DNA of 64,000 bases. Origin: Muribaculaceae bacterium. Lineage in GTDB: Bacteria > Bacteroidota > Bacteroidia > Bacteroidales > Muribaculaceae. Below the pieces are notes generated by a model that saw nothing but the letters and a program-made list of their open reading frames with translations, had not been told where the DNA came from and ran no database searches. Shown piece after piece: positions 1,770 to 63,402 of this stretch. The translations under genes and the position numbers were made by a program. Positions within the stretch are counted from its first letter, which is position 1. The number at the start of each line of letters is the position of its first letter. The stretch covers positions 54,259 through 118,258 of the forward strand of contig JAMPAX010000002.1 of NCBI GenBank assembly GCA_023667015.1. Direction: 5' to 3'.

Positions 1770-1811
1770 TAAGTAGATGGTCGATTTAAATTTAAATTGA
1801 ACAGCTACTTA
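1770..1811. repeat. Palindromic element copy A (TAAGTAG..ATTTAAATTTAAAT..CTACTTA), 42 bp imperfect palindrome (18/21 arm identity)
   Basis: taagtagatggtcgatttaaa|tttaaattgaacagctactta; see finding on the dispersed palindrome family. Confidence 0.8.
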
Positions 1812-1868
1812 ATACAAATTTGTAACATATAATGTAACGGATATATCAATATCTGAGGTTGTTGGCTG

Positions 1869-2481: not shown

Positions 2482-2886
2482 ATGAGACGACTGAATATTC
2501 TTCCTCCTCTGCTTTTAGCAAGCGCTATAATACTCAGTGGGGGATGTACGAAGAAAATTTATGTGCCGGTAGAAGACACTCGCATTGTCCGCGACACTAT
2601 ACATAAGACTCTGTTGCGACAGGACTCAGTGGTACTTCGCGATTCCATCTTCGTGTATCAGAAGGGAGACACTATTGTGAAGACGGCTCTGAAAGAGCGC
2701 ACCCGCATAGTATGTCGCCACGATACCTTGCGACAGATAGTCCGCGACACCATAGTGCAAAAAAGCGTAACCCCCATAGCCGCAGATGCCAAACAGAAGA
2801 AAGGACTGAGGCTATGGAAGTTGCTGACTGCTACTATAATCATCGGAATCCTGTACTACCTAATAAAGAGGAGATATCGCAAATAG
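2482..2886 (+). CDS. Small lipoprotein with C-terminal transmembrane anchor (unimolecular-spanin-like architecture)
   Basis: Lipobox ILSGGC at the N-terminus; C-terminal TM LRLWKLLTATIIIGILYYLIKRRYRK; starts 4 bp after the amidase stop. Confidence 0.4.
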   Translation: MRRLNILPPLLLASAIILSGGCTKKIYVPVEDTRIVRDTIHKTLLRQDSVVLRDSIFVYQKGDTIVKTALKERTRIVCRHDTLRQIVRDTIVQKSVTPIAADAKQKKGLRLWKLLTATIIIGILYYLIKRRYRK

Positions 2887-2920
2887 TGCATAGTCGCGGG
2901 GGGGTGCATAGTTGCGCGTT

Positions 2921-5900
2921 TTATTTTACACGTTTTTTTACCTGCTTTTTGACAGCTTGACGCTTTTTTGGGGCTGTGAAGTTGACAGGCTGCTTGCCGT
3001 CTCGACCATTGATAGGCTCCCAGCCTACGTGGATCATCTTGATAGGACATGCATCGTTGAGATTATTGGCAGTGTAGGGACTATACGCCATTGAGAAATA
3101 GTTGAAGTCCCAACCGAACGATGATGATTTGCCGCTATTGTCAACGTGGCCATCGCTTACCGGAGCGCGAAGCCAATAAATAGCCCCGGCAACTGAAGGG
3201 AGGTCATATACAATCGGGCGATAAATATTACCGGGATTGCTCGCATTAGTCAGCGGATTCTGAACATCGGCATATCGAAGCATACCCTTCCAAGTAGTGT
3301 TGAAACCATCCTGAAGATTGAACTGTGTGCGTCGTCCCATACCGTTGGCACCAAGGGGGAAGATAATCTGGCGGCCGTCATAGTGGTTGTATACTATACA
3401 TGCACGCACACCACTTGCAGAACCCTTGCCACCGTTATTATCATTACCATGATCCTGGAATGATTGAGACCTGTCAATATTCAACTCCGTAGTCGTAGCA
3501 CCGTCTGAATAACAGATACCGCAAGCGAAGTCTGTAGGTGCTGTAGAGGAACGCAAAGCCTCGAATTGTGCGAGCGTCGGTATGGAGTAATAATGACGTT
3601 CGTTGGCATCGACATTATCATAATAGAAATTCACCCAGGGATGGTTCATATTATTCCATGCAGTAGAGCCCTTATCTGTGTTTGGGAACTTTGTATTCAT
3701 CACTCCTGAATTGGACTTAATATTTTCCCAAGTAAGACCTGCACCTCCCATACCCTGCGAGTATATTTTGAAGGGATGATTGTTGACGGGCTGTCCGGGA
3801 CCAAATATTCCCTCATGACCATACTCGCCATTGTTACCGATAAGAATAGCCTGTCGGTAATTTCGCATCTTAAACAGTGAACCTATCTGAAGGGGCGACA
3901 TGGTAATCTCAGCCGGATAATATTTGTTGTTTGAGGTATTGTTTGCCACATCGGCGCCCACCAAACACCATGAACTCCATTCGTCACCGCCATCAATTAC
4001 GGCAAGTGCCCGTCGGTAGCCCTGGCGCACAAAAATCAGATGTTCGCATTGATTACCATGATACAATACCCTGATAATCGCACATCGAGGAGTAGTAGAC
4101 GTATTCCGGCTGTCGAAATTGATCTTGAACTCAATTGGAGTCTTGGTCATACCCGAGACACTGTGTTTGTCCGTGTTAGGCAAGTTTCCTCCTGTGAGAC
4201 TCAAGAAGTCTCCTCCATACATAGCGGTGACAGTGGCCGACCACTCCCCTTCTGACTCAAACTGGGTATAATCTGTATCGTCAGGGTCGAGCTGTTGACA
4301 AAGCTTCACTTCAAAAGGCTCCGTATTGGTATCATCGTGCCATACAGCTTTTGGATTTACAATACGACGTACCTGATATATTGTCACATCACGCGTACGG
4401 GTCAGTTCCTTTCCACGGATATTGAACGTAGCCGTAAGCCGGACCACGGCCTTTCGCTGGAAAGAATCGTAAGGATTCGTGCCGGTGAAGCCGGAGTCAT
4501 TGATCATTGTCTTATTGCGGGTAAGCATCGGAATCCAAAAGATTCTGGAAGCTGCCCCACTCTCCACACAGGGCTCATAAGGATTTTCAGCGGCCGCATT
4601 TCTGACCTCATATCCGTTAAGATTGAGGTTACCCGTGCCGGGATAATTATTAGGCACGACTTCATACTCGCGATAGTTCTGGCTGTTGCCGAAATAATAG
4701 TCGCTCAAAGCATCCATACCTGCCTGCGAGAAGGATACGTTCTTAATTACATCAGTAGCAATCTCACCTGAGCTACCAACAATCGGAGCCTGAAGAGCAA
4801 GAAACCCGAGATATGAAGCATTATAACCATTAAATTTCTTGGCAGCCTCAACGTTCCACTTGAAAGACCCGTAAGGATTCATCGGCACAGAGTCGAGCAC
4901 ACCGTCATGAATCATCGTAGCTCTAACGGTGTCGCAAGGATACCAGCAGTTCTGAATAATTCGAGCAGTAAGCTTTGTACAGTTGCCGTTGATCTTCACC
5001 GGCATCACAGCCTTCTTATTGTAGAGATAAGATACCTGAAACTCATCAGCAGCGATGATATCCGGGTCTTCCTCTACGTAGTTGATGTGCCAGTCGGGCT
5101 GGTTGGCCCATCCTTTGAAACCGAGAGTGACTTTATAATGATGATTTCGCTGAGCGTTATAATTATACTTTTCATCCTGACCGAGCATGAAGCGATAGGT
5201 GATCATACCGTTGGTACAGTTCTCAAGGTTGGTAGAATTGTAGTAAGCTTGCACTTCAATATAAGTACCACATTCCACATCATCCTTATAGTCAGGCTGA
5301 CCGCTATGAGTAATATTGCCCATCACGGCCGGATCCTGGCGCTTGTCGTACTTCTTGCGCTCAGACTCCGGGGAGACATTAGAATAGTCACCCTGCATAT
5401 TCTCAAAGAAGAATAGAGAGGGGCTGTCATCATTGTGCCAGCGGTCAAGATTTGTAGAGCCACGACCCATGACGAGCCATCCCTTATAATCGGGAGAAGT
5501 AGAAGCCGCCGGTCCCTGCTTGGTATAGTAGATAGTTTGTCCTTTAGAAATGAGCTGTGAAAGGGTATCTGTCGGGGTATTGTCCTGACCGAGGTAGCAT
5601 TTCTTCGGGATATCTTTGATAGTTACACTCTTGATATATATCAGCACGTCAGGCTTGAGTCCTGAAGGGTCGAAACCTACAGTCACCTTACTTGCCTGTC
5701 GGCGCATCCATGAATGAAGTTCGGTTGTATTCCTATTGATGATAAGGGTTTGGGGACCGAAACCGAAAGGACGGTTAAAGTCGTCGCTATCTTCGATATT
5801 ACCCTCATCGAAATAGCCATAAAGAGCATCGTTGGCAGCGATATTCTCCGGATTCCAAGTTGTCTGAATTTTCTGCAGGGCGGCCACAGTAGAAGCATTG

Positions 5901-8761: not shown

Positions 8762-8850
8762 GGAGGTGAGAGATGAGAGATGAGAGGTGAGAGATATCAG
8801 ATATCAGATATCAGATATTAGATATCTGATGTGAGATATGAGAGAGGTTT
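8762..8850. repeat. Intergenic short tandem repeats (GAGATGAGA and ATATCAGAT units, about 9-10 bp period)
   Basis: gagagatgagagatgagaggtgagagatatcagatatcagatatcagatattagatatctgatgtgagatatgagagagg. Confidence 0.85.
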
Positions 8851-19018: not shown

Positions 19019-19150
19019 TTAATCATGCTGCAACAAGATTAACCAAACTGCATCAGGATTCATCAAGCTTCATCAAGCTGTATCAGGCTGCAACAAGATG
19101 TATCAAGCTACATCACAGGCTGTATCAGGCTGTATCTGTTGCATCAGGCT
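19019..19150. repeat. Degenerate approximately 10-bp periodic repeat (CATCAAGCT / GTATCAGGCT units) in the convergent intergenic region
   Basis: tgcatcaggattcatcaagcttcatcaagctgtatcaggctgcaacaagatgtatcaagctacatcacaggctgtatcaggctgtatctgttgcatcaggctgtatcaagctt. Confidence 0.8.
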
Positions 19151-19169
19151 GTATCAAGCTTAAAATATC

Positions 19170-23394: not shown

Positions 23395-23456
23395 CTAAAA
23401 CGTGTGAAGGTGAGAGAGAAATCTCCCGCCTTCGCTTGTTATAATCTCGTTATAAT

Positions 23457-23552
23457 TAAGTAGCTGTTCAATTTAAATTCCTTATTCGAGTGAAGAAACT
23501 GTCACAAAAATAACCGCGCATAAAGTTTAAATTTAAATCGACCATCTACTTA
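23457..23552. repeat. Palindromic element copy B: reverse complement of copy A with a 46-bp central insertion
   Basis: taagtagctgttcaatttaaatt-[46 bp]-ttaaatttaaatcgaccatctactta, 63 bp after tRNA-Arg. Confidence 0.8.
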
Positions 23553-23611
23553 AGACCTCCTTTCATAATAACTTTATGGTTCAAGGGACTGAGAGTCCGT
23601 CTATATAAAGC

Positions 23612-33570: not shown

Positions 33571-33608
33571 TAAGCAGCTATTCAATTTAAATTCAAACAT
33601 TCTGCTTA
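33571..33608. repeat. Palindromic element copy C (TAAGCAG..ATTTAAATT..CTGCTTA variant)
   Basis: taagcagctattcaatttaaattcaaacattctgctta, 24 bp upstream of the 33547 start. Confidence 0.6.
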
Positions 33609-34132: not shown

Positions 34133-34882
34133 TTGATAATGAAAAAAGAAAAGGAAGAAAAAAAAGGAGATGTAGCCGGATTAGAATCTGGCAAGACACA
34201 GGAGTCGGTAATTGAATTTGCGAATCAAGAGACCGAATCAAGTGCTGAGTCGAAGGAAGAGCCGGAGGCTGAAGCAGTGACTCAAGCTGAGACCGCAGTA
34301 GAGACAGGGCCGGAGACTGAGGCAGAGGTAAAGACAACGGAAGAGACAGAGTCGGAAACAGAGTCGGAAACAGAGTCGGAAACAGAGTCGGAGGTTAAAT
34401 CGGAGGTTGAGACTGATGAGAATGTTGAAGATAAAGCAGACATATTAGCAGTATGGAGAAATCTCGAGGAAAAGACTGATGCTCTGGAGCAACTTCGAGC
34501 GTTTGCAGAGTATCAGAGCGATACAGCCTTGAAAGTCAAAGACTCCCTCACGCGTATTGATGGTTTCCGCAATGGGTCGCACGAACCAGACAGTAGGATA
34601 TCGATGGCAGTGGGACAATTGCTGGACATTGCGACAAACGCTGCCAATGGAATCATAGATCCTGAGGCTATAGCAATGATACTGCGGGCCAATGACTTCG
34701 ATGAAGCAATAGAGCGTGCCCATAATGAGGGTGAGATCTGTGGTAGAAATGCTTTAATCCGGGAGAAGTTTTTCAGTCCCAAGAGCAACGTAGAGAGTGT
34801 ACCGGCACTTGGAGGAACTTCAGCATCTGCCGACACACGCCGACCGGGAAGCATCTTCGACCTTGCCAGCTTCGCCCGATAG
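34133..34882 (+). CDS. Acidic repeat protein, candidate capsid scaffolding protein
   Basis: Glu/Thr-rich N-terminal half with (TESE)4 encoded by a 12-bp tandem DNA repeat at about 34356-34395; helical C-terminal half; immediately precedes the capsid-like gene. Confidence 0.35.
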   Translation: MIMKKEKEEKKGDVAGLESGKTQESVIEFANQETESSAESKEEPEAEAVTQAETAVETGPETEAEVKTTEETESETESETESETESEVKSEVETDENVEDKADILAVWRNLEEKTDALEQLRAFAEYQSDTALKVKDSLTRIDGFRNGSHEPDSRISMAVGQLLDIATNAANGIIDPEAIAMILRANDFDEAIERAHNEGEICGRNALIREKFFSPKSNVESVPALGGTSASADTRRPGSIFDLASFAR

Positions 34883-34947
34883 ACAATCTCAATCTACAAA
34901 GTAATAGACAAATAATACGATAAACCAATAATCTAAAAAACTAAATT

Positions 34948-36405
34948 ATGAACAAGACCATTCATGGCGGTCAGTCCGCCACCGTCACCAACACAGCGAT
35001 GCTGACAGGAGGGATAGCTCCCGGCAACTTCCTTGAGACCGGTATCGATGAAGAGCTCTTTCGATTTAACTCCGACGACACTCCTCTAATGAACCTCATG
35101 CTCAAGGCCAAACGAGTGAAAGTCGACTCTCCGGAAGTAGACCACTATATGATCGATGAGCCGACATATCAGAGTGTCACCACGAAGAACTTTACCGGCT
35201 CAATTCAGGGAGCACTTCCTGTAGACCCTCGTGATGCTACCATTATTCGTCCCTATTCTACATTGCTGATCAAAGGTGTGGATGGTTACGACGATGATGG
35301 CAAGGAGAAAACTCCGGGAAGAGATCTTATGCTGTTTGTGGTGAGTCATGACAATTTATCGGGGATGCCGGTAGTGAAAGCTGTCAATGGCAGGAAAAAC
35401 AATCCTTCCGATGAATCCGGCTACATCCCTGAAATTCCGGCAGGCACGAAGGTAATCATCCTTGCCAACTCGCTCTACGAGACACAGAAGGAGGTAGAGC
35501 CGGACCTGATAGTTCCCCAGCCAACGCGTGTATTCCTTCAGAAAAGAGGTATGAACCAAGTAGTGTCAGACTACTTCGATGCACAGCGCAAGCGTATTCC
35601 CTTCAGCAAAGCAATCCTTGCTGAGCAGGCAATTGCCAACTTCAAAGTACGCGGTAATCGTACACTATGGGCAGGAAGAAAGGGATGTTTCAAGCTTCCG
35701 GTAGACAAAATGGGCATGCAGACCGTCTATACCACGGAAGGCCTTCGCTGGCAATTCAAACGAGAGTTGCAACATACCGGCAAATGGACTGTAGAGCAAG
35801 TAATAGCACTAGCCAAAATGTTCTTCACAGGTGAAGACGTGCCCAAATCGGCTCTGTTGTTGGCAGGAAAGAACATGCTTGAGCAAATTCAATGTATAGA
35901 TTTCTCGAAGCATCCTGAGATTCAAATCTCCACAAAGACCAACAAACTGGGTTGGACCGTCACCAACTTCCATACCGTATTTGGCGATATTGAAATCAAG
36001 CGTGAGCCCACACTCGACCGCCTTGGTTGGAGCAATTCCGGAGCGTTGATAGGTGAAGACCGACTGGTTCACTATGTATATTCTGCCGAGCACTCTTTCT
36101 CCGACAGAGTAGAAGGACAGGAAGCCACTCGCAACGGCATTCTTATCTGGGACGCCTTGGCACTCAAAGGCAGCTGCCATATATGGATTGACGGCGAAAA
36201 TGACGGCAATTGCACACCTGAGCTGAGCTATCTGATGTGGGATAAAGCTGAGGCACCCGAGCCTGTGGAGGGTGGGGCATCTCGATTCTATCTTCTCAGC
36301 GACTGTCCCGGAATTTCAGAGAGCGCCAAAGCCGGTCAGGTCTGGGAATATATCAAGGAGGATGGAACATCTTCAGGAACGTGGGTACCACAGGTTTTGA
36401 TATGA
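34948..36405 (+). CDS. Putative major capsid protein (485 aa)
   Basis: Assigned by context (after scaffold-like gene, before terminase/portal) and size; not verifiable by motif from memory. Confidence 0.4.
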   Translation: MNKTIHGGQSATVTNTAMLTGGIAPGNFLETGIDEELFRFNSDDTPLMNLMLKAKRVKVDSPEVDHYMIDEPTYQSVTTKNFTGSIQGALPVDPRDATIIRPYSTLLIKGVDGYDDDGKEKTPGRDLMLFVVSHDNLSGMPVVKAVNGRKNNPSDESGYIPEIPAGTKVIILANSLYETQKEVEPDLIVPQPTRVFLQKRGMNQVVSDYFDAQRKRIPFSKAILAEQAIANFKVRGNRTLWAGRKGCFKLPVDKMGMQTVYTTEGLRWQFKRELQHTGKWTVEQVIALAKMFFTGEDVPKSALLLAGKNMLEQIQCIDFSKHPEIQISTKTNKLGWTVTNFHTVFGDIEIKREPTLDRLGWSNSGALIGEDRLVHYVYSAEHSFSDRVEGQEATRNGILIWDALALKGSCHIWIDGENDGNCTPELSYLMWDKAEAPEPVEGGASRFYLLSDCPGISESAKAGQVWEYIKEDGTSSGTWVPQVLI

Positions 36406-36415
36406 TTCCGGAGTT

Positions 36416-36452
36416 AAAGATTAGATATTAGATTTATATATAGATATTAGAT
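36416..36452. repeat. Short tandem repeat GATATTAGA units
   Basis: gattagatattagatttatatatagatattagatc. Confidence 0.7.
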
Positions 36453-36453
36453 C

Positions 36454-36750
36454 ATGACAACTAAAACTTATGGGGTATATGGGATGCTTGAATGGCATGC
36501 ATTGATACCGGCGGGGAGGATGACACTTAGTCTGGTGTTCACCGACGGGAAGGTATCAGGCTACGGAGTCATACCGGCACGTTACCAGACGTCCGACCCC
36601 GTCATACAATCCGCCATTGAGGCCTCCGGCCACTTCAGAAACGGAAAAATCCGACTGCTAAATACAGAGAATATGAATAGAAGACCAATAGAGAATCGAT
36701 CCACAGCGAAAACAAGCAATGATATATCGACAAGAAACAGTACTCGCTGA
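36454..36750 (+). CDS. Hypothetical small protein (98 aa) within the packaging operon
   Basis: ORF only; overlaps the next gene. Confidence 0.3.
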   Translation: MTTKTYGVYGMLEWHALIPAGRMTLSLVFTDGKVSGYGVIPARYQTSDPVIQSAIEASGHFRNGKIRLLNTENMNRRPIENRSTAKTSNDISTRNSTR

Positions 36751-37342
36751 CGTCACGGCAGCTCTGGGGGAAACTCCGGAGTTGCCCATGATTCTGAATC
36801 CCAAGGAGTTGCCATCATTGACAATAAATACGTTGATAATGCCAATTTTACCGGAAGTAGCGGCTGAGGTGATGAGAAATGAGCCAATTCAAGAGATGGA
36901 AGACTGCATTATACCTCTGAGAGGGACCGTGGAAACTCGCGGAGCTAACTCAGGGATAATAACATTGCCCTCAGATTATCTAAGGCTTGTATGCTTCAAG
37001 ATGTCCGGATGGTCCGGGTCATTGACTAATATAGAGCCTACTACGACATTACGGGCACAACTCAGCTGGCGCATCCCTGAAGAGCTTCACAGGATGTGCA
37101 CCCCGGAAGATCCCTTTTTATTGTTAAGCTCCGGAATAGAGGGTATGCAACTTGAATATTACGGCATAAGAAGAGAGGGTTGCTCAGAAATAGAAGCGAC
37201 ATATATAGCCAAGCCGACTTGGAATCATGGATTTACGGAAACAAGTATATCGCTACCCAAGAGGCTATATCGAAAAATCATAGAAGAGACGGCCAAGAAA
37301 ATAAGAGAAAATGACAGAGAAAACTATACAGGATATACTTGA
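36719..37342 (+). CDS. Hypothetical protein, possible small terminase subunit by position
   Basis: 207 aa; 32-bp overlap with the TerL start (translational coupling); no HTH recognised. Confidence 0.3.
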   Translation: MIYRQETVLADVTAALGETPELPMILNPKELPSLTINTLIMPILPEVAAEVMRNEPIQEMEDCIIPLRGTVETRGANSGIITLPSDYLRLVCFKMSGWSGSLTNIEPTTTLRAQLSWRIPEELHRMCTPEDPFLLLSSGIEGMQLEYYGIRREGCSEIEATYIAKPTWNHGFTETSISLPKRLYRKIIEETAKKIRENDRENYTGYT

Positions 37343-39407
37343 TGAGAACAAAAGAAGAAATGAAGAAATCAGACGGGAATATAATCCTCTTTTCGGGGTT
37401 GGAGCTCTTGGAGAACGCTTCCCACTTCTTCTAAAGCCGGGAGGGAAAGAATTGCATCTTCCCATAGAAATGGCCGATTTCATCGTAGTATCGGAATCAT
37501 TAAGGGCCGGCTCGGTCAGCGAATATATTGCTGAACTCACAGAGAAATGTCCTTGGAAAAAGCCCGATGAAATACGCACTCAGATATTGGGGAATATTCT
37601 CTATCATTGGGGCCATTGTGACTTTGAATTCTGGGCTGCAAGCTATGTACGGATAAAGAACAAGGGGGGAGGAGCAGATGTTAACTTCGTGCTCAACAGG
37701 CCACAACGACGACTAGTCGAGCGATTTGAGAGGATGCGTCATAGAAATCAGCCAATACGATTGATACTCTTGAAAGCCCGACAATGGGGAGGGTCGACGT
37801 GCACTCAACTTTATATGGCATGGTTGCAACTATGCCGACAGGAAGGACTCAACTCGTTAATAATTGCTCATCAGGGGATAGGGTCTGATGAAATACGCGA
37901 TATGTTCACACGTATGATTCAGGCTTATCCGCTCCGCATGCTTTACCCGCCGGGAAAGATACGGCGAGGAGCCAAGAAAATAGTCAGAGTAGGGAGAGCC
38001 GGAGGAATCTCAAGAGTGCCGCAGCGAAATTGTAAAATCAAGATAGGGACTGCTGAGCGGCCTGACTCTTGTCGTGGAGGGGACTATAATCTTGTACATT
38101 TATCGGAAATAGGAATATGGAAAGCGACAGACGGGAAGAAACCTGAAGATATCGTACGTTCTGCCTGTTCGGGCATTCTATTGAAGCCACTGACCATGAT
38201 AGTCATGGAATCTACGGCAAATGGCGTTGGCAACTACTTTCATCGGGAATATCTTGCAGCAAAGGATTCTACCAGTCAATTTGAGCCAATGTTTGTAAGC
38301 TGGTATGAGATTGACCAATACTCACAGGCATTCAATGATGAAGAAGAGCGTAGAGCAATGGCCGAAAAACTCTTTGAGAATCGGCAAGACACACGCGAGA
38401 GCAGTCGCCGGGTTTCGGGAGCATATCTATGGAGACTATGGGAATTGGGAGCTACGCTGGAGGCTATCAACTGGTATGTCGGAGAGAGAAAGAAATACTC
38501 TGATCAGGGACAGATGGCCGCAGAATATCCCACGGACGATCTTGAGGCCTTTGCGCATTCCGGAAGGATGGTGTTTGCGCGCGAATCGGTAGAGAAACTT
38601 CGCGAAGAATGTCGTGAGTCGAACGTATGCGGAATTTTGGAAACTCCGATGGAATCGGGACTTCCGGTGTTATCGAGGATAGAATTTGTAAGGGAAGCGG
38701 GGGGAGCATTGCAGATTTGGGAAATGCCGCAGGCTGAAGAGACAGAGCGTTTCTCCGACAGATATTTGGCCGTCATGGATATCGGAGGGAGGTCAGCCCG
38801 GGCAGATTGGACAGTCATCAGTGTATTCGACAGACGAAGAATGGCAGATGGGGGAAGGCCGGAGATCGTAGCGCAATGGCGGGGACACGGAGATATGGAT
38901 ATTGTAGCCATGGAGGCAGCCAAGTTAGCAGCCTTCTATAATGAGGCATTATTAGTCGTAGAGAGCAACACCGCTGAGACTCGCTTTCCGACATCACTGT
39001 TTGATGCCGACAATATGCCCTATGTAATGGCTCAACTCAGGCAGGTATATACCAATTTGTACGTCAGGCGCCAGTCGCCGGAAGATATCCGCGAAGGGCG
39101 GCCGGCGAAATATGGCTTCCATACGAATGTATCGACCAAGCCATTGGTCATTGCAGAATTAGTCAGAGCCGTACGCGAAGGGCTTTATATAGAGCGCGAC
39201 GTGCGAGCTCTGGAAGAGATGCTACAGTATGAACAGCGTCCCAATGGCAGTTATGGAGCTATTGCAGGATGCCACGACGACATCTTGATGACTCGAGCCA
39301 TAGGACTTTACATCTGTTTCCACGAAATGGAAACGCCGCGAAGAATCCTTCCCCGAAATTATCGGAACGGATATTCGGGCTATTTATCAGAAGCTTTTAT
39401 GAGCTAG
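37311..39407 (+). CDS. Terminase large subunit (TerL)
   Basis: Walker A-like KARQWGGST, Walker B-like IVMEST, RNase-H-like nuclease motifs VMDIGGRSARADWTV, VESNTAE and CHDDILMT. Confidence 0.7.
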   Translation: MTEKTIQDILDENKRRNEEIRREYNPLFGVGALGERFPLLLKPGGKELHLPIEMADFIVVSESLRAGSVSEYIAELTEKCPWKKPDEIRTQILGNILYHWGHCDFEFWAASYVRIKNKGGGADVNFVLNRPQRRLVERFERMRHRNQPIRLILLKARQWGGSTCTQLYMAWLQLCRQEGLNSLIIAHQGIGSDEIRDMFTRMIQAYPLRMLYPPGKIRRGAKKIVRVGRAGGISRVPQRNCKIKIGTAERPDSCRGGDYNLVHLSEIGIWKATDGKKPEDIVRSACSGILLKPLTMIVMESTANGVGNYFHREYLAAKDSTSQFEPMFVSWYEIDQYSQAFNDEEERRAMAEKLFENRQDTRESSRRVSGAYLWRLWELGATLEAINWYVGERKKYSDQGQMAAEYPTDDLEAFAHSGRMVFARESVEKLREECRESNVCGILETPMESGLPVLSRIEFVREAGGALQIWEMPQAEETERFSDRYLAVMDIGGRSARADWTVISVFDRRRMADGGRPEIVAQWRGHGDMDIVAMEAAKLAAFYNEALLVVESNTAETRFPTSLFDADNMPYVMAQLRQVYTNLYVRRQSPEDIREGRPAKYGFHTNVSTKPLVIAELVRAVREGLYIERDVRALEEMLQYEQRPNGSYGAIAGCHDDILMTRAIGLYICFHEMETPRRILPRNYRNGYSGYLSEAFMS

Positions 39408-39409
39408 AA

Positions 39410-39485
39410 AAGAATAAGGAGCTTAAGGAATTCAAGGTGCTTAAGAAACCTAAGGAATTTAAGGATAGATTTAAAAAAATTTAAA
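39410..39485. repeat. Degenerate repeat of CTTAAGGAATT-like units between TerL and portal
   Basis: aataaggagcttaaggaattcaaggtgcttaagaaacctaaggaatttaaggat. Confidence 0.6.
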
Positions 39486-39487
39486 AG

Positions 39488-41008
39488 ATGAAAGAAACAG
39501 AAGGATTTGGAGAGCATCGGGAGGATCTGCTACGCTTGGCGCAGGCTCATTGGAATGCCATGGCCGGCTTCCGCCTGGACCGTGAACGCTGTAAGCGCTA
39601 CACGTATGGGCGGCAGTGGGAAGACACAATACAGGTTGAAGGGCGCACGATGCGCGAGGCGGACTATATTCGCCGGCAGGGTAACATACCCTTGAAAAAC
39701 AATCTCATCCGACGAATTGTCAGGAACGTATTAGGGGTTTTTCGCAATCAGTTTGTTCCCCCGTCGGTTACAGACCTGGACCTGCCGGACACTCCGGAGA
39801 CTCAGCGTACGTTAGAGAGACTCAACGTAGCTGCTCGGCGCAACATGCTTGAGGAACTTTATGCCCGCACGATGGAAGAGTTTCTCATCTCCGGGCTTGC
39901 TGTCCATCGCAAATGGGTGGGGGAGCGTCGGGGACGCTATGATGTCTGGACAGACTATGTTCAGCCCGACTATTTTATCATTGACACTGATATGCGCGAC
40001 TTCCGGGGATGGGATGCGACACTTGCCGGAGAGATCCACGATGTAGACTTTACTGAGCTATGCACACGCATAGCCCAAAGTCCGGCACAAATGAAACGAC
40101 TACGAGAGATATATCTCGAAAGTGAAGACAATGGACTGAGAGAACTCTCCGAGAGCTTTGGTAATCCTGCTTCGGCTCTTAACTTTCTACAACCTACCCA
40201 TCCGGGACGATGTAGAGTCATCGAAATATGGCGCAGAGAACCGCGGGGTTATTATCATTGCCACGACACTCGCGATGGTTCCCTTTTCCGCATTCGGGAG
40301 AATGAATATACTAAATGTGTGGAGGAGGAAAACTCGAGGAGGCTGAAAAGAGCTGTAGATGAAGGGCGAACAGAGAGGGAGGCTCGACTTATACGCTACA
40401 AGTGGGTGATGGAAGAATGCTGGCGATATTACTTCTTATCGCCCCTGGGAGATGTGCTTTGCTCCGGAGACTCACCATTTCCGGATGGATCCCATCCTTA
40501 CGTTTTCAAGGCCTACCCCTTTATCGACGGAGAAATCCACTCCTTCGTCAGCGACTTGATCGACCAGCAAAGATACGTCAATCGTCTGGTGACACTCTAC
40601 GACTGGGTCATGCGAGCCTCAGCCAAGGGAGTGTTACTCTTTCCGGAGGGATCACTCCCGGATGGAATAGACATCGACGATATCTCGAGCGAGTGGAGTC
40701 GTTTCAATGGTGTCATAATGTTCCGACCCAAGCCGGGCGTTCCTTTGCCGCAACAAATCAGCGGAAACGCAGCCAACATCGGCATTACTGAGCTTCTGCA
40801 GGTGCAGCTGAAGATGATGGAAGATGTCAGCGGTGTGAACGGTGCACTCCAAGGGAAACTCGAAAGTGGAGCCGTCAGCGGCACGCTCTACAATCAGCAG
40901 ACGCGACATGCACTGACCGGGCTACTCGACATCCTTCAGAGCTTCGGAAGCTTTATCCGCGAAGGAGTGAGGAAGGAAATCAATATCTTGCAAGATGAAA
41001 TCTTGTAA
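39488..41008 (+). CDS. Phage portal protein
   Basis: 506 aa directly after TerL; YTYGRQWED N-terminal region resembles portal family proteins. Confidence 0.55.
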   Translation: MKETEGFGEHREDLLRLAQAHWNAMAGFRLDRERCKRYTYGRQWEDTIQVEGRTMREADYIRRQGNIPLKNNLIRRIVRNVLGVFRNQFVPPSVTDLDLPDTPETQRTLERLNVAARRNMLEELYARTMEEFLISGLAVHRKWVGERRGRYDVWTDYVQPDYFIIDTDMRDFRGWDATLAGEIHDVDFTELCTRIAQSPAQMKRLREIYLESEDNGLRELSESFGNPASALNFLQPTHPGRCRVIEIWRREPRGYYHCHDTRDGSLFRIRENEYTKCVEEENSRRLKRAVDEGRTEREARLIRYKWVMEECWRYYFLSPLGDVLCSGDSPFPDGSHPYVFKAYPFIDGEIHSFVSDLIDQQRYVNRLVTLYDWVMRASAKGVLLFPEGSLPDGIDIDDISSEWSRFNGVIMFRPKPGVPLPQQISGNAANIGITELLQVQLKMMEDVSGVNGALQGKLESGAVSGTLYNQQTRHALTGLLDILQSFGSFIREGVRKEINILQDEIL

Positions 41009-41052
41009 GATATTGAGGGTTGAGGGTTGGGGGTTGTTGAGGGTTGAGGGTT
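41003..41052. repeat. Heptamer microsatellite (GAGGGTT) x about 6; G-quadruplex-capable on the + strand
   Basis: ttgagggttgagggttgggggttgttgagggttgagggtt. Confidence 0.9.
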
Positions 41053-53750: not shown

Positions 53751-53807
53751 ACTCTTAAAGTTCAAATTTATAATTAACAGCCACTTAAACCAAAAAAAAC
53801 TAAACAT

Positions 53808-58308: not shown

Positions 58309-58349
58309 TATTACTGCTTAAGTAGCATCTCCCTATAATTCGAATAGGA
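58309..58349. repeat. Palindromic element copy D (TAAGTAG...CTACTTA ends, different interior) within the predicted pckA 5' leader
   Basis: taagtagcatctccctataattcgaataggacatctactta. Confidence 0.6.
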
Positions 58350-58431
58350 CATCTACTTATGCACCTATATTTTTAACAATCAATTCAACTCTTTGGATTG
58401 ACCTATATAAATTTTCTATAGATATTTTCCG

Positions 58432-58439
58432 CAAAATTA
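58432..58439 (-). promoter_or_regulatory. Candidate pckA -7 box (TAATTTTGC on the minus strand); leader about 170 nt
   Basis: caaaatta on + strand is the reverse complement of TAATTTTG. Confidence 0.4.
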
Positions 58440-60000: not shown

Positions 60001-60086
60001 CGGGAAATTGGGGATTGGAAATTGTTTAGTTAGGGCTATCCCCTAATTCCTAATTCCTAATTCCTAATTCCTAATTCCTAATTCAA
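60001..60086. repeat. Heptamer microsatellite (CCTAATT) x6 preceded by partially complementary GGGAAATTGGGGATTGG segment and a short palindrome
   Basis: gggaaattggggattggaaattg...ttagggctatcccctaattcctaattcctaattcctaattcctaattcctaattc. Confidence 0.9.
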
Positions 60087-61344: not shown

Positions 61345-62787
61345 ATGAAGTCATTACGCCTTTTTATAGTCATCATGATAACGTCGGTCGGCATCCTGCT
61401 TAGCGGATGTATCTCCGACGATTTCACTACGTCCTCATCCGACGTCCTTACCTTCTCCACAGACACGGTCAGCTTTGATACTGTCTTCACCGGCATCGGT
61501 ACCCCAACCGCTCGCCTGAAGGTCTACAATCGCGCGAAGAAGTCTATCAACATCTCCTCGATACGGTTTAAGAAATCCGACAGCAACTTCACCTTCAACG
61601 TTGATGGTGTCAGCGGCTCGTCGTTTTCCGACGTCGAGATTCGCGGAGGCGACTCCATATTTATCTTCCTGGAATGCTTTATCCCTGAAAGTGCCTCAAA
61701 GAAGCCCGCCCTCGTGGAAGATGAGCTCCTCTTTCTCACTAACGGAGTTGAGCAAAAGGTATTGTGTGAGGCATGGGGCCAAAACGTAATCCGCATGAAG
61801 AGGACTACTATCGACAAGGATATGACACTTGGCGCAGAGCAGCCCTACGTACTCTTCGATACCATCACCATAGCTCAGGGAGCTACCCTAAAAATAGAGC
61901 CGGGAGCACAAGTGCTCTTCCACGACAAGGCCTTCCTTAACGTCAAGGGACGCATAGAGGCTGTAGGGAAACCCGGCAAGATGATCGACATTCGCGGTGA
62001 CCGCCTTGACAACGTACTCCCCGACGTGGGCTATGACATACTCGCCGGCCAGTGGGGCGGCATACGTATCCATCCGGAAAGCTTCGACAACCGATTGGAA
62101 TACGTCAACATGCGTTCCTCCTCCGCCGGGTTGGTTGTCGATTCGTGCGCAAATCTCGATCAGCGCAAGCTACTTCTCGTCAACTCCTGGCTCCACAACT
62201 GCCAGGCATCGGCACTGAAATCGAGCTATTCGTGGGTTGACTCCTACGGTTGCGTTTTCTCAGAGTCGGCAGATGCTGTAGTCAACCTCACCGGTGGTCG
62301 TCACGAGTTTATACAGTGTACTCTTGCCAACAATTACCTCTTCTCGGCGATATCTCAACCCCTGCTAAGCATCTTTCACTGCATGCCGGACCATTCTGAA
62401 GAAAACTCTCAGCCCCTGATGCAACTAAGCCTTGAGAATTCAATAATCTACGGACTCGCAGGCGATATCAATGAGGGAGATCTCAGCGGCAGTAATGTAT
62501 ATCTAAGGAATGTACTATTGAAATCAAATGGCAATGACGATGACCACTTCATCGACTGCATATGGGGAGAAGACCCTCTATTCTATACTATTAGGGCTGA
62601 TTACTACTTCAATTATCGGGTGAAGGATGATTCGCCGGCTATAGGCGCCGGCAATCCGGCCTTCGTAGGCTCCCTCTGCCGCATAGATATGGATGGACTA
62701 TCCCGATTGGGCAACGGCAATCCCACACTCGGCGCCTACGTCTACACGCCGGAGCCTGCCGGAAGGGCGATTTTCAATCGCCCCTGA
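61345..62787 (+). CDS. Hypothetical lipoprotein (480 aa)
   Basis: Lipobox LLSGC; no recognised domain. Confidence 0.35.
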   Translation: MKSLRLFIVIMITSVGILLSGCISDDFTTSSSDVLTFSTDTVSFDTVFTGIGTPTARLKVYNRAKKSINISSIRFKKSDSNFTFNVDGVSGSSFSDVEIRGGDSIFIFLECFIPESASKKPALVEDELLFLTNGVEQKVLCEAWGQNVIRMKRTTIDKDMTLGAEQPYVLFDTITIAQGATLKIEPGAQVLFHDKAFLNVKGRIEAVGKPGKMIDIRGDRLDNVLPDVGYDILAGQWGGIRIHPESFDNRLEYVNMRSSSAGLVVDSCANLDQRKLLLVNSWLHNCQASALKSSYSWVDSYGCVFSESADAVVNLTGGRHEFIQCTLANNYLFSAISQPLLSIFHCMPDHSEENSQPLMQLSLENSIIYGLAGDINEGDLSGSNVYLRNVLLKSNGNDDDHFIDCIWGEDPLFYTIRADYYFNYRVKDDSPAIGAGNPAFVGSLCRIDMDGLSRLGNGNPTLGAYVYTPEPAGRAIFNRP

Positions 62788-63402
62788 TTACTTAGGTGTG
62801 ACGCCTGTGCTACTGTTGGAAGAGCGATTTTCAATCGCCCCTGATTTCCAAAGGCCTACGGCTGTGGTGCTCGCAGGAACGTTGGCTAATACTGTTGTGC
62901 CGGCGCCTACTATTGCCCAGGCACCTACCTCCACTCCGGGAAGGACTACGGCTCCGGCGCCTATCCAAGCCCCCTCACCGATATTTACACCTCCACACAA
63001 TACAGCTCCGGGACTGATATGCGCGAAGTCGCCGACCCGGCAGTCATGCTCTACAATAGCCCCTGTATTGACTATGGCATGCCTCCCAATCGTGGCATCT
63101 GCTTGAACTCCGGCCATCGGCATTATAGCCGTCCCCCCTCCAATAAGAGCCGTCGGAGAGACATATGCCGCCGGAGAAATCAAAACAGGATAATCAGCCT
63201 CAAGATTCTTGCCGATTATTGAACGGCGCTTATTGTCGCCAATGGCTATAAATAGCGGAGAATCAATACTATCAGGAATCGTAACACCCTCAACTTCGCG
63301 AGTACATTCCTCTTTCCCCAGCATTCCATTGATTGTAATACCAAGGCTATCAGCCAGTTGAGCCACAACCTTAGCATGACCTCCGCTACCAAGAATCTTC
63401 AT
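62788..63402 (-). CDS. Hexapeptide-repeat sugar N/O-acetyltransferase (NeuD/PglD family)
   Basis: N-terminal MKILGSGGHAKVV Rossmann-like region plus C-terminal left-handed beta-helix hexapeptide repeats. Confidence 0.7.
   Translation of the reverse strand: MKILGSGGHAKVVAQLADSLGITINGMLGKEECTREVEGVTIPDSIDSPLFIAIGDNKRRSIIGKNLEADYPVLISPAAYVSPTALIGGGTAIMPMAGVQADATIGRHAIVNTGAIVEHDCRVGDFAHISPGAVLCGGVNIGEGAWIGAGAVVLPGVEVGAWAIVGAGTTVLANVPASTTAVGLWKSGAIENRSSNSSTGVTPK

Follow-up and report, generated by a model that had tools for sequence, protein, structure and literature searches.

A 42-bp imperfect palindrome that begins with TAAGTAG and ends with CTACTTA lies shortly after a tRNA-Pro gene in the 64,000-nt stretch of DNA analyzed here (the window), and both of its halves recur in opposite orientation after a tRNA-Arg gene. 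What kind of element is this, and how did it come to be dispersed? In this study, we collected the copies of this palindrome in the window, on the adjoining contig and in other genomes, and weighed a mobile-element origin against recombination sites, operators and RNA structures. Our results suggest that, most likely, the copies are remnants of tiny non-coding transposons and not a new system for recombination or regulation. The window itself is Bacteroidales DNA: besides SusC/D genes it has T9SS sorting domains and an operon for Mfa-type fimbriae, and Muribaculaceae proteins are the nearest ones to its FrdC and PckA (P0241, which appeared as the top PckA match, was rejected as an internally duplicated chimera).

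Copies in the window and on the same contig

The copies and their parts are as follows (window positions, except for copy F):

Copy A, 1770-1811, no strand assigned: 42-bp form, read as collapsed, with two terminal arms only
Copy A arm 1, 1770-1796: TAAGTAGATGGTCGATTTAAATTTAAA
Copy A arm 2, 1789-1813, minus strand: TAAGTAGCTGTTCAATTTAAATT, overlapping arm 1 in the AT core
Copy B, 23457-23552, no strand assigned: 96 bp, two-armed, in the orientation opposite to A
Copy B arm 2, 23457-23479
Copy B centre, 23480-23525: 46 bp, unique, between direct TTTAAATT 8-mers (23472-23479 and 23526-23533)
Copy B arm 1 in its extended form, 23519-23552, minus strand: TAAGTAGATGGTCGATTTAAATTTAAACTTTATG
Copy C, 33571-33608, no strand assigned: 38-bp short form of the GCAG subtype, with ends TAAGCAG/CTGCTTA
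Copy D, 58319-58359, no strand assigned: 41-bp diverged palindrome with termini TAAGTAG/CTACTTA
Copy E, 53765-53787, minus strand: diverged solo arm TAAGTGGCTGTTAATTATAAATT
Copy F, L193 6399-6426, same contig but outside the window: solo arm 1, 27/28 match

Pairs of the form TAAGYAG-N15-45-CTRCTTA were observed three times in the window against 0.02 expected, and the version with N60-90 between the heptamers once against 0.00 expected; all but one of the window's seven TAAGTAG/CTACTTA heptamers are part of these pairs. Copy E was detected by a position-weight scan built from seven arms, with a score of 21.9 (a threshold of 14 gives 0.46 hits per shuffled window), and the extended-arm motif TGAACTTTAAG lies inward of its arm, reaching approximately 53753. 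All five window copies (A-E) fell wholly within the non-coding fraction, which makes up 8.2% of the window (P about 4e-6). Beyond the window, 20 kb were read on a contig given as GCA_023666405.1, JAMPCB010000002.1 (about 84 kb in total). Copy F was found there, its solo arm preceded by a degenerate arm in direct orientation, and the copy number was six to seven in the approximately 84 kb of contig. An earlier note on this DNA had listed copies A to D. All four are real and related, and A, B and C lie where they had been placed, but D had been put 10 bp off, at 58309-58349.

Copy A is the imperfect palindrome TAAGTAGATGGTCGATTTAAA|TTTAAATTGAACAGCTACTTA, whose arms match at 18 of 21 positions. 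Both of its arms were 100% complementary to those of B (1770-1796 vs 23526-23552, 27 nt; 1789-1813 vs 23455-23479, 25 nt), i.e., 52 of 52 arm nucleotides are identical in two copies that are 21.7 kb apart, inverted relative to each other and otherwise unrelated in their flanks. B had been described as the exact reverse complement of A with 46 bp inserted at the centre. The identity of the arms was borne out, but the added part amounts to 54 bp (46 unique bases plus a second TTTAAATT 8-mer), and the direct TTTAAATT repeat in B lies exactly where A is joined. The 52/52 identity of A and B and the 27/28 identity of F argue for recent copying rather than convergent binding sites, and the evidence fits an element that has been active in this lineage. 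We also asked whether A and B might delimit a composite transposon or an island; this was rejected because secDF, frdCAB and the fimbrial operon lie in the 21.7 kb between the two copies, and because the frdCAB-Big_5 synteny is conserved in L190 and L191, two loci from other Muribaculaceae.

Copy C consists of one full arm (33571-33598, TAAGCAGCTATTCAATTTAAATTCAAAC) and, at the other end, the terminal heptamer CTGCTTA only; the full arm has 19 of 21 positions in common with arm 2 as found in A and B. Copy D had been thought to share nothing except its termini with the other copies, yet its right arm also agrees with 17 of 23 positions in arm 1 of A, TAAGTAGATG included.

The arm as the conserved unit and its relatives in other genomes

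With all arms aligned from the head inward, the conserved unit was a terminal arm of 23-34 nt, TAAGTAG-MTG-NTC-RAYTTAAATT-(N)AAACTTTATG, of which the outermost heptamer TAAGYAG is the best-conserved part. Arms were arranged either as inverted pairs, from 0 to about 150 bp apart, or solo. The head faces outward, with arms of 23-34 nt, in A and B as well as in four elements from other genomes described below (L041, L063, L030 and L061). An extended arm of approximately 34 nt was found in arm 1 of B, in E and on either side of L041, while F has part of it; in addition, TTTAAAC-T is common to B and F where A reads TTTAAAT-T. Since B and F share sequence beyond the part present in A, and the AAACTTTATG continuation occurs in arm 1 of B, in L041 and in E, it appears that the long arm is ancestral and that A is truncated. 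The elements measure 38-197 bp and are free of ORFs. MITEs usually measure about 50-500 bp and have TIRs of about 15-40 nt; the arms are within the latter range, whereas copies A, C and D (38-42 bp) are under the lower size bound and are read as collapsed derivatives. Arms end in TA in all cases but one (TG in the left arm of L063), and no direct repeats flank the arms on the outside, even in the young copies A and B; a TA duplication at the arm ends would be inseparable from the TIR.

Between the two arms of an element there are uncompensated differences at positions 8, 11, 14 and 16, although each arm stays near the family consensus. Position 5 alone varies on both arms together (T/T in A, B and D; C/C in C and in the Saprospiraceae copies) and splits the family into GTAG and GCAG subtypes. 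The uncompensated differences suggest that conservation acts on the arm sequence rather than on base pairing, and the pattern points to descent or to selection on arm sequence, as expected for TIRs.

The heads (TAA-GTAG in A, B, D and F; TAA-GCAG in C and Saprospiraceae) raise the possibility of a REP/REPIN-like family, moved as single-stranded hairpins by a Y1 HUH (RAYT-type) transposase that would cleave at the GTAG/GCAG at the hairpin foot. GTAG, which the copies carry with CTAC on the other arm, is the tag of the major REP superfamily, and REP, BIME and REPIN sequences are likewise imperfect palindromes of 35-40 bp, extragenic and arranged as inverted dimers with variable linkers (PMC3733652). 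The short forms of 38-42 bp have the size of a REP, the copies are strictly extragenic and mostly between co-directional genes, and the joint change at position 5 would also fit. However, the REP tag, GTAG or CGTC, ends a unit that is itself a stem-loop, whereas GTAG is located here within the stem, paired with CTAC, and single arms (F, E and the Saprospiraceae solos) have no internal stem save a weak AT-only palindrome, AATTTAAATT. Moreover, the arms tolerate uncompensated mismatches, and centres of 46-150 bp together with solo arms suit TIRs better. No Y1 HUH transposase gene flanked by the repeats (a REPtron) and no RAYT were seen within the approximately 84 kb of contig. To our knowledge, REP-type families are little described in the phylum Bacteroidota. 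Thus, we consider a REP-like origin unlikely. A PATE of the IS200/IS605 type, which had been suggested earlier, is unlikely as well because the ends are true inverted repeats.

A genome collection that did not contain the window's own assembly was scanned with the degenerate half-site TAAGYAGNTNNTCNATTTAAAT. The scan returned 65 loci, mostly chance matches in AT-rich or coding DNA, of which three were from Muribaculaceae: an element of about 197 bp whose arms are alike over approximately 34 nt (L041), an element of about 103 bp located 24 nt upstream of era in Duncaniella (L063), and a solo arm 14 nt from a start codon (L017). None of the three loci is orthologous to a window locus, and the centres of L041 and L063 are similar to the centre of B only beside arm 1. 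The genomes of other Muribaculaceae species in the scan had at most one strict half-site match each, and no copies were found in approximately 50 kb of other Muribaculaceae loci (L188, L190, L191, L197-L201 and L210-L214). The copy density is specific to this lineage.

A second group came from Saprospiraceae, with 14 loci in several MAGs, 13 of which share TAAGCAGGTRTTCAATTTAAATT; L059, which sits inside an ORF, was rejected as a chance match. All 13 copies were intergenic with the head outward, and solo arms were among them. They include palindromes of 32 and 48 bp (L013 and L015) and two-armed elements of 164 and 167 bp (L061 and L030); the layout of L013, an arm plus a terminal heptamer, is that of copy C. 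Three copies in a single MAG share up to approximately 90 nt of their interior. No transposase was found beside the Saprospiraceae copies, and the neighbouring genes were functionally unrelated. Arms from Muribaculaceae and Saprospiraceae agreed at four of the five free positions, the other 17-18 of 22 being forced by the search pattern. On the basis of this agreement and of the same architecture, the two families were judged to be probably homologous. On the other hand, a metagenome scan with TAAGTAGMTGNTCRAYTTAAA gave, among the matches listed, one eukaryote-like high-copy repeat (GC 0.33-0.40) in which the 21-mer is internal, which indicates that unrelated repeats can fit such a pattern by chance. 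Two scans of viral contigs and a BLAST search of copy B against plasmids and phages yielded nothing relevant.

The arm motif recurs in two, possibly three, classes of Bacteroidota. One reading of this distribution is that the TAAGYAG...CTRCTTA pair with its arm of 23-34 nt is the putative recognition site of a Bacteroidota-wide DNA-processing enzyme, i.e., a phylum-specific REP-like or recombination-site system and not IS debris. The classes concerned may be Bacteroidia, Saprospiria and perhaps Flavobacteriia, and both the arm-plus-heptamer form and a preference for sites downstream of tRNA genes or terminators may be products of the mechanism of such an enzyme. We regard this proposal as speculative and rather improbable.

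Genomic setting, RNA folding and corresponding loci in relatives

The location of A and B downstream of tRNA genes, pointed out in the earlier note, was confirmed: A lies 139 nt past tRNA-Pro and 73 nt ahead of the ATG of an amidase gene, and B 61 nt past tRNA-Arg and 59 nt ahead of the ATG of a gene for a BspA-type LRR protein. Copy C is found within the 84 nt that separate two minus-strand ORFs, at a distance of 23 nt from either one (23 nt before the ATG), at the edge of a phage-like capsid/portal block. Copy D is located between pckA and a divergent gene, 64 nt before the ATG, with the pckA ATG (58254) on one side and the -7-like box TAATTTTG (58432-58439, minus strand) on the other. This pckA box is also present in the orthologue L197, and, judging from the sequence, D is probably inside the pckA leader or 5'UTR. 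Copy E occupies a 57-nt gap between a GH3 gene and the next ORF, within a polysaccharide-utilisation locus. C was also considered as an att site of the phage-like block, which was rejected since the opposite edge has no matching copy and an integrase is lacking.

Each of the two tRNA genes in the window is closely followed by a copy (roughly P 0.01, post hoc). The earlier idea of a tRNA-proximal integration hotspot found no support, as only two of seven copies are so placed and the tRNA-Arg locus of another Muribaculaceae genome lacks the element: L191 has a divergent frdC and tRNA-Arg as in the window (FrdC 66%) and no B downstream of the tRNA. Proximity to tRNA genes is at most a weak preference.

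Copies A, B, C, E and F are just past the 3' end of a gene or tRNA, and D is probably in the pckA leader. Such placement might suggest RNA hairpins under host selection that stabilise or process mRNA, attenuate transcription or, lacking a U-tract, terminate it at the ends of transcription units, tRNA genes included. Copies A and D fold well, with RNA hairpins of -14.1 kcal/mol (z -5.4) for A and -13.5 / -16.5 kcal/mol (z -3.4 to -3.9) for D. However, the hairpin of C is weak (z -1.3 / -1.9), B is marginal, and solo arms cannot form a hairpin. The stems are AT-rich, unlike the G+C-rich stems of intrinsic terminators, and no U-tract follows the copies. Terminator scans flagged 1699-1734 but not A, and found no signature at B; the flagged segment is a canonical terminator after tRNA-Pro, and A starts 29 nt past its T-run. 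In addition, A and B are oppositely oriented relative to transcription, the arm mismatches are uncompensated, the copies are not conserved at orthologous positions, and Rfam recognized only tRNAs above the gathering threshold in the window (permissive thresholds at A and B gave noise). Selection for RNA hairpins thus appears quite unlikely. The simpler possibility that the motif marks transcript ends as an ordinary terminator, which the earlier note had set against its own proposal, also fails: a U-tract is lacking, A follows a separate terminator and D is located in a divergent promoter/5'UTR region.

Comparison with corresponding loci in relatives revealed that the copies are absent at the amidase, frdC/tRNA-Arg and pckA loci. 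First, in L187 (amidase 86% identical, on a 1-kb contig) the start-proximal 50 nt are kept, including the -7 box, and a terminator is present where A would sit. Second, besides the L191 locus without B, five 21-kb frdC loci from one abundant Muribaculaceae species had no copy at all. Third, the pckA orthologues of the five strains with the closest PckA (91% amino-acid identity) had no D. Thus, the copies are unlike a conserved operator or RNA element, which would be expected to persist at these loci. With regard to presence/absence variation, which the earlier note proposed as a check, these comparisons showed absence at corresponding loci but no exact empty site, the nearest relatives being too distant (66-91% protein identity).

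These absences also bear on the idea that the arms are operators of a transcription factor or nucleoid protein, each arm of 21-23 bp being bound by one monomer and paired arms permitting looping or cooperative binding. In favor of this idea, start codons are 14-75 nt away from the copies, an ATG follows the outward head at 12-25 nt in C, E, F, L063, L017, L013 and L015, and the arm recurs in more than one class. Nevertheless, the genes beside the copies differ in function (they include amidase, LRR protein, pckA, PUL gene, MatE, era, thioredoxin-like, outer-membrane protein and others), copies are missing from the orthologous promoters of relatives, their orientation relative to genes is mixed, and similarity over 34 nt with 52/52 identity exceeds the needs of a binding site. 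Copy A lies upstream of the amidase core promoter (-7-like box TAATTTTG at 1869-1876), which L187 conserves without A. The earlier reasoning that a variable centre argues against a fixed-spacing operator was sound, and we consider operators very unlikely. Arms as promoters were rejected too, as no consistent -33 TTTG / -7 TAnnTTTG was present in them or at a fixed distance from them; none of the copies includes the -7 box of the amidase gene or of pckA.

A site-specific recombinase is another candidate, with the arms as binding or crossover sites, B, L041 and L063 as invertons, or as attC-like sites that share one global recombinase, and their centres as cargo. Global invertase regulons in Bacteroides combine conserved arms with unrelated centres, and known invertible segments are about 170 bp and more. 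The inverted-repeat consensus of Mpi is ARACGTWCGT. The family described here resembles such regulons (reviewed in PMC12632263 and PMC11602134) in its conserved arms and unrelated centres, and resembles the Bacteroidales invertons (Mpi/Tsr) in having inverted repeats around a short variable segment upstream of a surface-protein gene. B is 59 nt upstream of a BspA-type LRR gene, a typical phase-variable class, and its centre contains CAAAAATA (23505-23512); read on the minus strand as TATTTTTG, this box fits the Bacteroidetes -7 consensus perfectly and points away from the LRR gene. The arm-plus-heptamer layout, in turn, recurs in C and L013. However, half of the copies, A, C and D among them, have no segment to invert, and the arms of B are no more than 46 bp apart, far below the size of familiar invertible segments. 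L063 is upstream of the housekeeping gene era, the centres of L041 and L063 have no exact TAnnTTTG box, and finding one -7 box by chance among 46 AT-rich bases would be no rarity (about 0.05). Solo arms exist, the arm sequence is unrelated to the Mpi consensus, and no invertase lies nearby. We therefore consider a recombinase system unlikely. The likeness to integron attC sites noted earlier (an imperfect palindrome in which the outer parts are conserved and the centre varies in length) had no support either: conservation of attC is structural (extrahelical bases), whereas the arms are conserved in sequence and occur solo; moreover, the window has no integrase, attI or cassette array, and the copies are 10-25 kb apart among housekeeping genes.

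A probable MITE-like element and comparable systems

The reading that we favor, with a confidence somewhat above even, is that the copies represent a MITE-like non-autonomous element of which A is a collapsed derivative reduced to its TIRs. On this point the earlier note was upheld: the family is dispersed and intergenic, its arms are inverted, its centre is variable or absent, and relatives occur at other loci in other genera. We counted as support the near-identical copies at unrelated sites and in either orientation, the long conserved TIRs around a dispensable centre, the strictly intergenic location beside functionally unrelated genes, the lineage-specific copy density, the absence from corresponding loci of relatives and the related elements elsewhere. 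Against it, no parent transposase or IS with matching TIRs was found in the window, in the neighbourhood of related copies, or in collections of phages, plasmids and viruses; nor was there an exact empty site or a target duplication longer than TA, and no transposase or recombinase/integrase domain was present in any window ORF scanned. Classic MITE families share interiors, whereas the interiors of these copies are mostly unrelated, and copies downstream of both window tRNA genes are not predicted by random insertion.

According to the MITE-like reading, the copies and their decay products would belong to a small non-autonomous transposable element whose functional unit is the TIR of approximately 23-34 nt. 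A transposase encoded elsewhere in the genome, now or once, would bind both arms and move whatever lies between them into AT-rich intergenic DNA. The target duplication would probably be TA, as in IS630/Tc1-type elements, given that all arms but one end in TA and no longer duplication flanks them; transposition itself and the kind of enzyme are likewise deduced from such features. A dispensable centre would allow the length between arms to vary from 0 to about 150 bp. Copy A is best explained by a deletion that joined the direct TTTAAATT 8-mers, one at each inner arm end, of a B-like copy, and the solo arms E and F as well as the arm-plus-heptamer form C would be further decay products. Where transcribed, paired copies would fold as hairpins, and they may affect neighbouring genes as a side effect.

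Several known systems show a similar pattern, and some of what follows on Correia/NEMIS, RUP and Nezha is general background. The Correia/NEMIS elements of Neisseria and the IS630-type MITEs (RUP, Nezha) are also intergenic and non-coding, with TIRs of approximately 26 nt that begin with TA. Correia/NEMIS-type MITEs further share length variants due to internal deletion, proximity to gene starts, transcribed hairpins and the lack of an encoded transposase (PMC3733652). In contrast, Correia elements are 100-155 bp long with conserved interiors and hundreds of copies, whereas the present family has mostly unrelated interiors, several members of 38-42 bp or solo arms, 6-7 copies per approximately 84 kb and a TA duplication deduced from the arm ends. 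ERIC/IRU sequences of enterobacteria are imperfect palindromes with conserved ends as well, extragenic and transcribed, whose short forms arise through internal deletions and long forms through insertions at fixed sites. On the other hand, ERIC is 127 bp long with a conserved core, its mobility itself is unproven, and it has no sequence similarity to the window family. It appears that the family behaves like Correia/NEMIS, ERIC and other bacterial MITEs, a resemblance in behavior that does not by itself assign it to a named family.

In Bacteroidota, MITEs are a common feature, as seen from a minisatellite-bearing MITE in Porphyromonas gingivalis (PMC4596501) and from a cMITE catalogue of 81,380 unique candidates in 46,051 genomes, the main text of which does not mention Muribaculaceae (bioRxiv 10.1101/2024.01.18.576219). 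A less routine point is that repeat families with nearly the same arm heads occur in two distant Bacteroidota classes. If this similarity reflects homology, it would imply an old, widespread and undescribed lineage of transposase and TIRs in Bacteroidota. The practical value of the family is modest. Annotators should be aware that such palindromes are neither terminators, att sites nor operators, and host genes might be affected by D, which probably sits in the pckA leader, and by B, ahead of the gene for the BspA-like surface protein. Finally, the family marks an uncultured deep-branching Muribaculaceae lineage, and its 34-nt arm offers a sequence tag for tracing the parent transposase.

Flanks and layout of the repeat family

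A 24-nt motif, GACTnAGAGTCCnTCT-ATAnAAA, which includes a small hairpin, was common to copies A (1770-1811) and B (23457-23552) of the dispersed MITE-like inverted-repeat family (TAAGYAG...CTRCTTA ends). It lay in the left flank of A (1746-1769) and the right flank of B (23586-23609), the same side once orientation was corrected. Its local alignment score was 26, whereas 300 shuffles gave no score above 23. The repeated unit may extend, at a variable distance, past the palindrome on the side of arm 1, one of the two terminal arms of A and B. Furthermore, short forms from two distant lineages followed one layout, a full arm and then only the terminal heptamer CTGCTTA:

33571-33608 of the window: copy C, 38 bp
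5993-6024 of L013, a copy of the Saprospiraceae family (reverse complement): short form, 32 bp

Random decay would not obviously be expected to produce this recurrence. The matches listed in the metagenome scan were taken up by a high-copy repeat of eukaryote-like character (GC 0.33-0.40) with TAAGTAGATGTTCGACTTAAA in its interior, which was rejected as a relative of the bacterial family, the match being an unrelated chance occurrence:

L067-L186: eukaryote-like repeat, metagenome contigs Ga03254xx / Ga03075xx

Loci beside copies B and C

At the locus orthologous to that of copy B, another Muribaculaceae genome (L191), which lacks B, carried a second, incomplete version of the tRNA-Arg(TCT) 3' half (3641-3678), adjoining the complete gene (3724-3798). 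This att-like scar suggests that tRNA-Arg(TCT) is an integration hotspot in the Muribaculaceae family. In addition, the site flanked by leuS and the DHQ synthase gene differed in content among strains of an abundant Muribaculaceae species (L210-L214, about 2500-3890), some having a BspA-type LRR gene and others an unrelated 210-aa gene; thus, the gene class adjoining copy B is strain-variable elsewhere too.

Copy C lay at the left edge of a phage-like block:

34133-41008: phage-like block encoding a major capsid protein (SU10-like) and a portal (P22-like)

Four further ORFs of this block matched no known family, and copy C had no partner at the right edge of the block. Neither an integrase nor a terminase was recognised within the window.

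Tandem repeats and taxonomic source

Short tandem repeats were unusually numerous in the intergenic DNA of the window, and direct repeats were also present:

128-160, 8763-8843, 36420-36452, 41013-41052 and 60042-60084: heptamer arrays
19022-19160: 10-mer array, ATCAAGCTGC x14
62756-62869: tandem pair of 57-nt direct repeats, both containing the hairpin GGGCGATTTTCAATCGCCC

The heptamer units were ATTGGGA (x4.7), GAGATGA/AGATATC, ATTAGAT, TTGAGGG and CCTAATT (x6). The 10-mer array began immediately 3' of the Big_5 stop codon and preceded a strong hairpin, and the 57-nt repeats occupied the junction of two convergent genes.

Proteins of the source MAG (GCA_023666405.1) carry the NCBI label '[Clostridium sp.]'. 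This taxonomic label appears to be wrong, because the gene content of the window is clearly that of Bacteroidales: it includes SusC/D, T9SS tails and Mfa fimbriae, and both FrdC and PckA are most similar to Muribaculaceae proteins. The lineage is deep-branching, its nearest FrdC being 66% identical.
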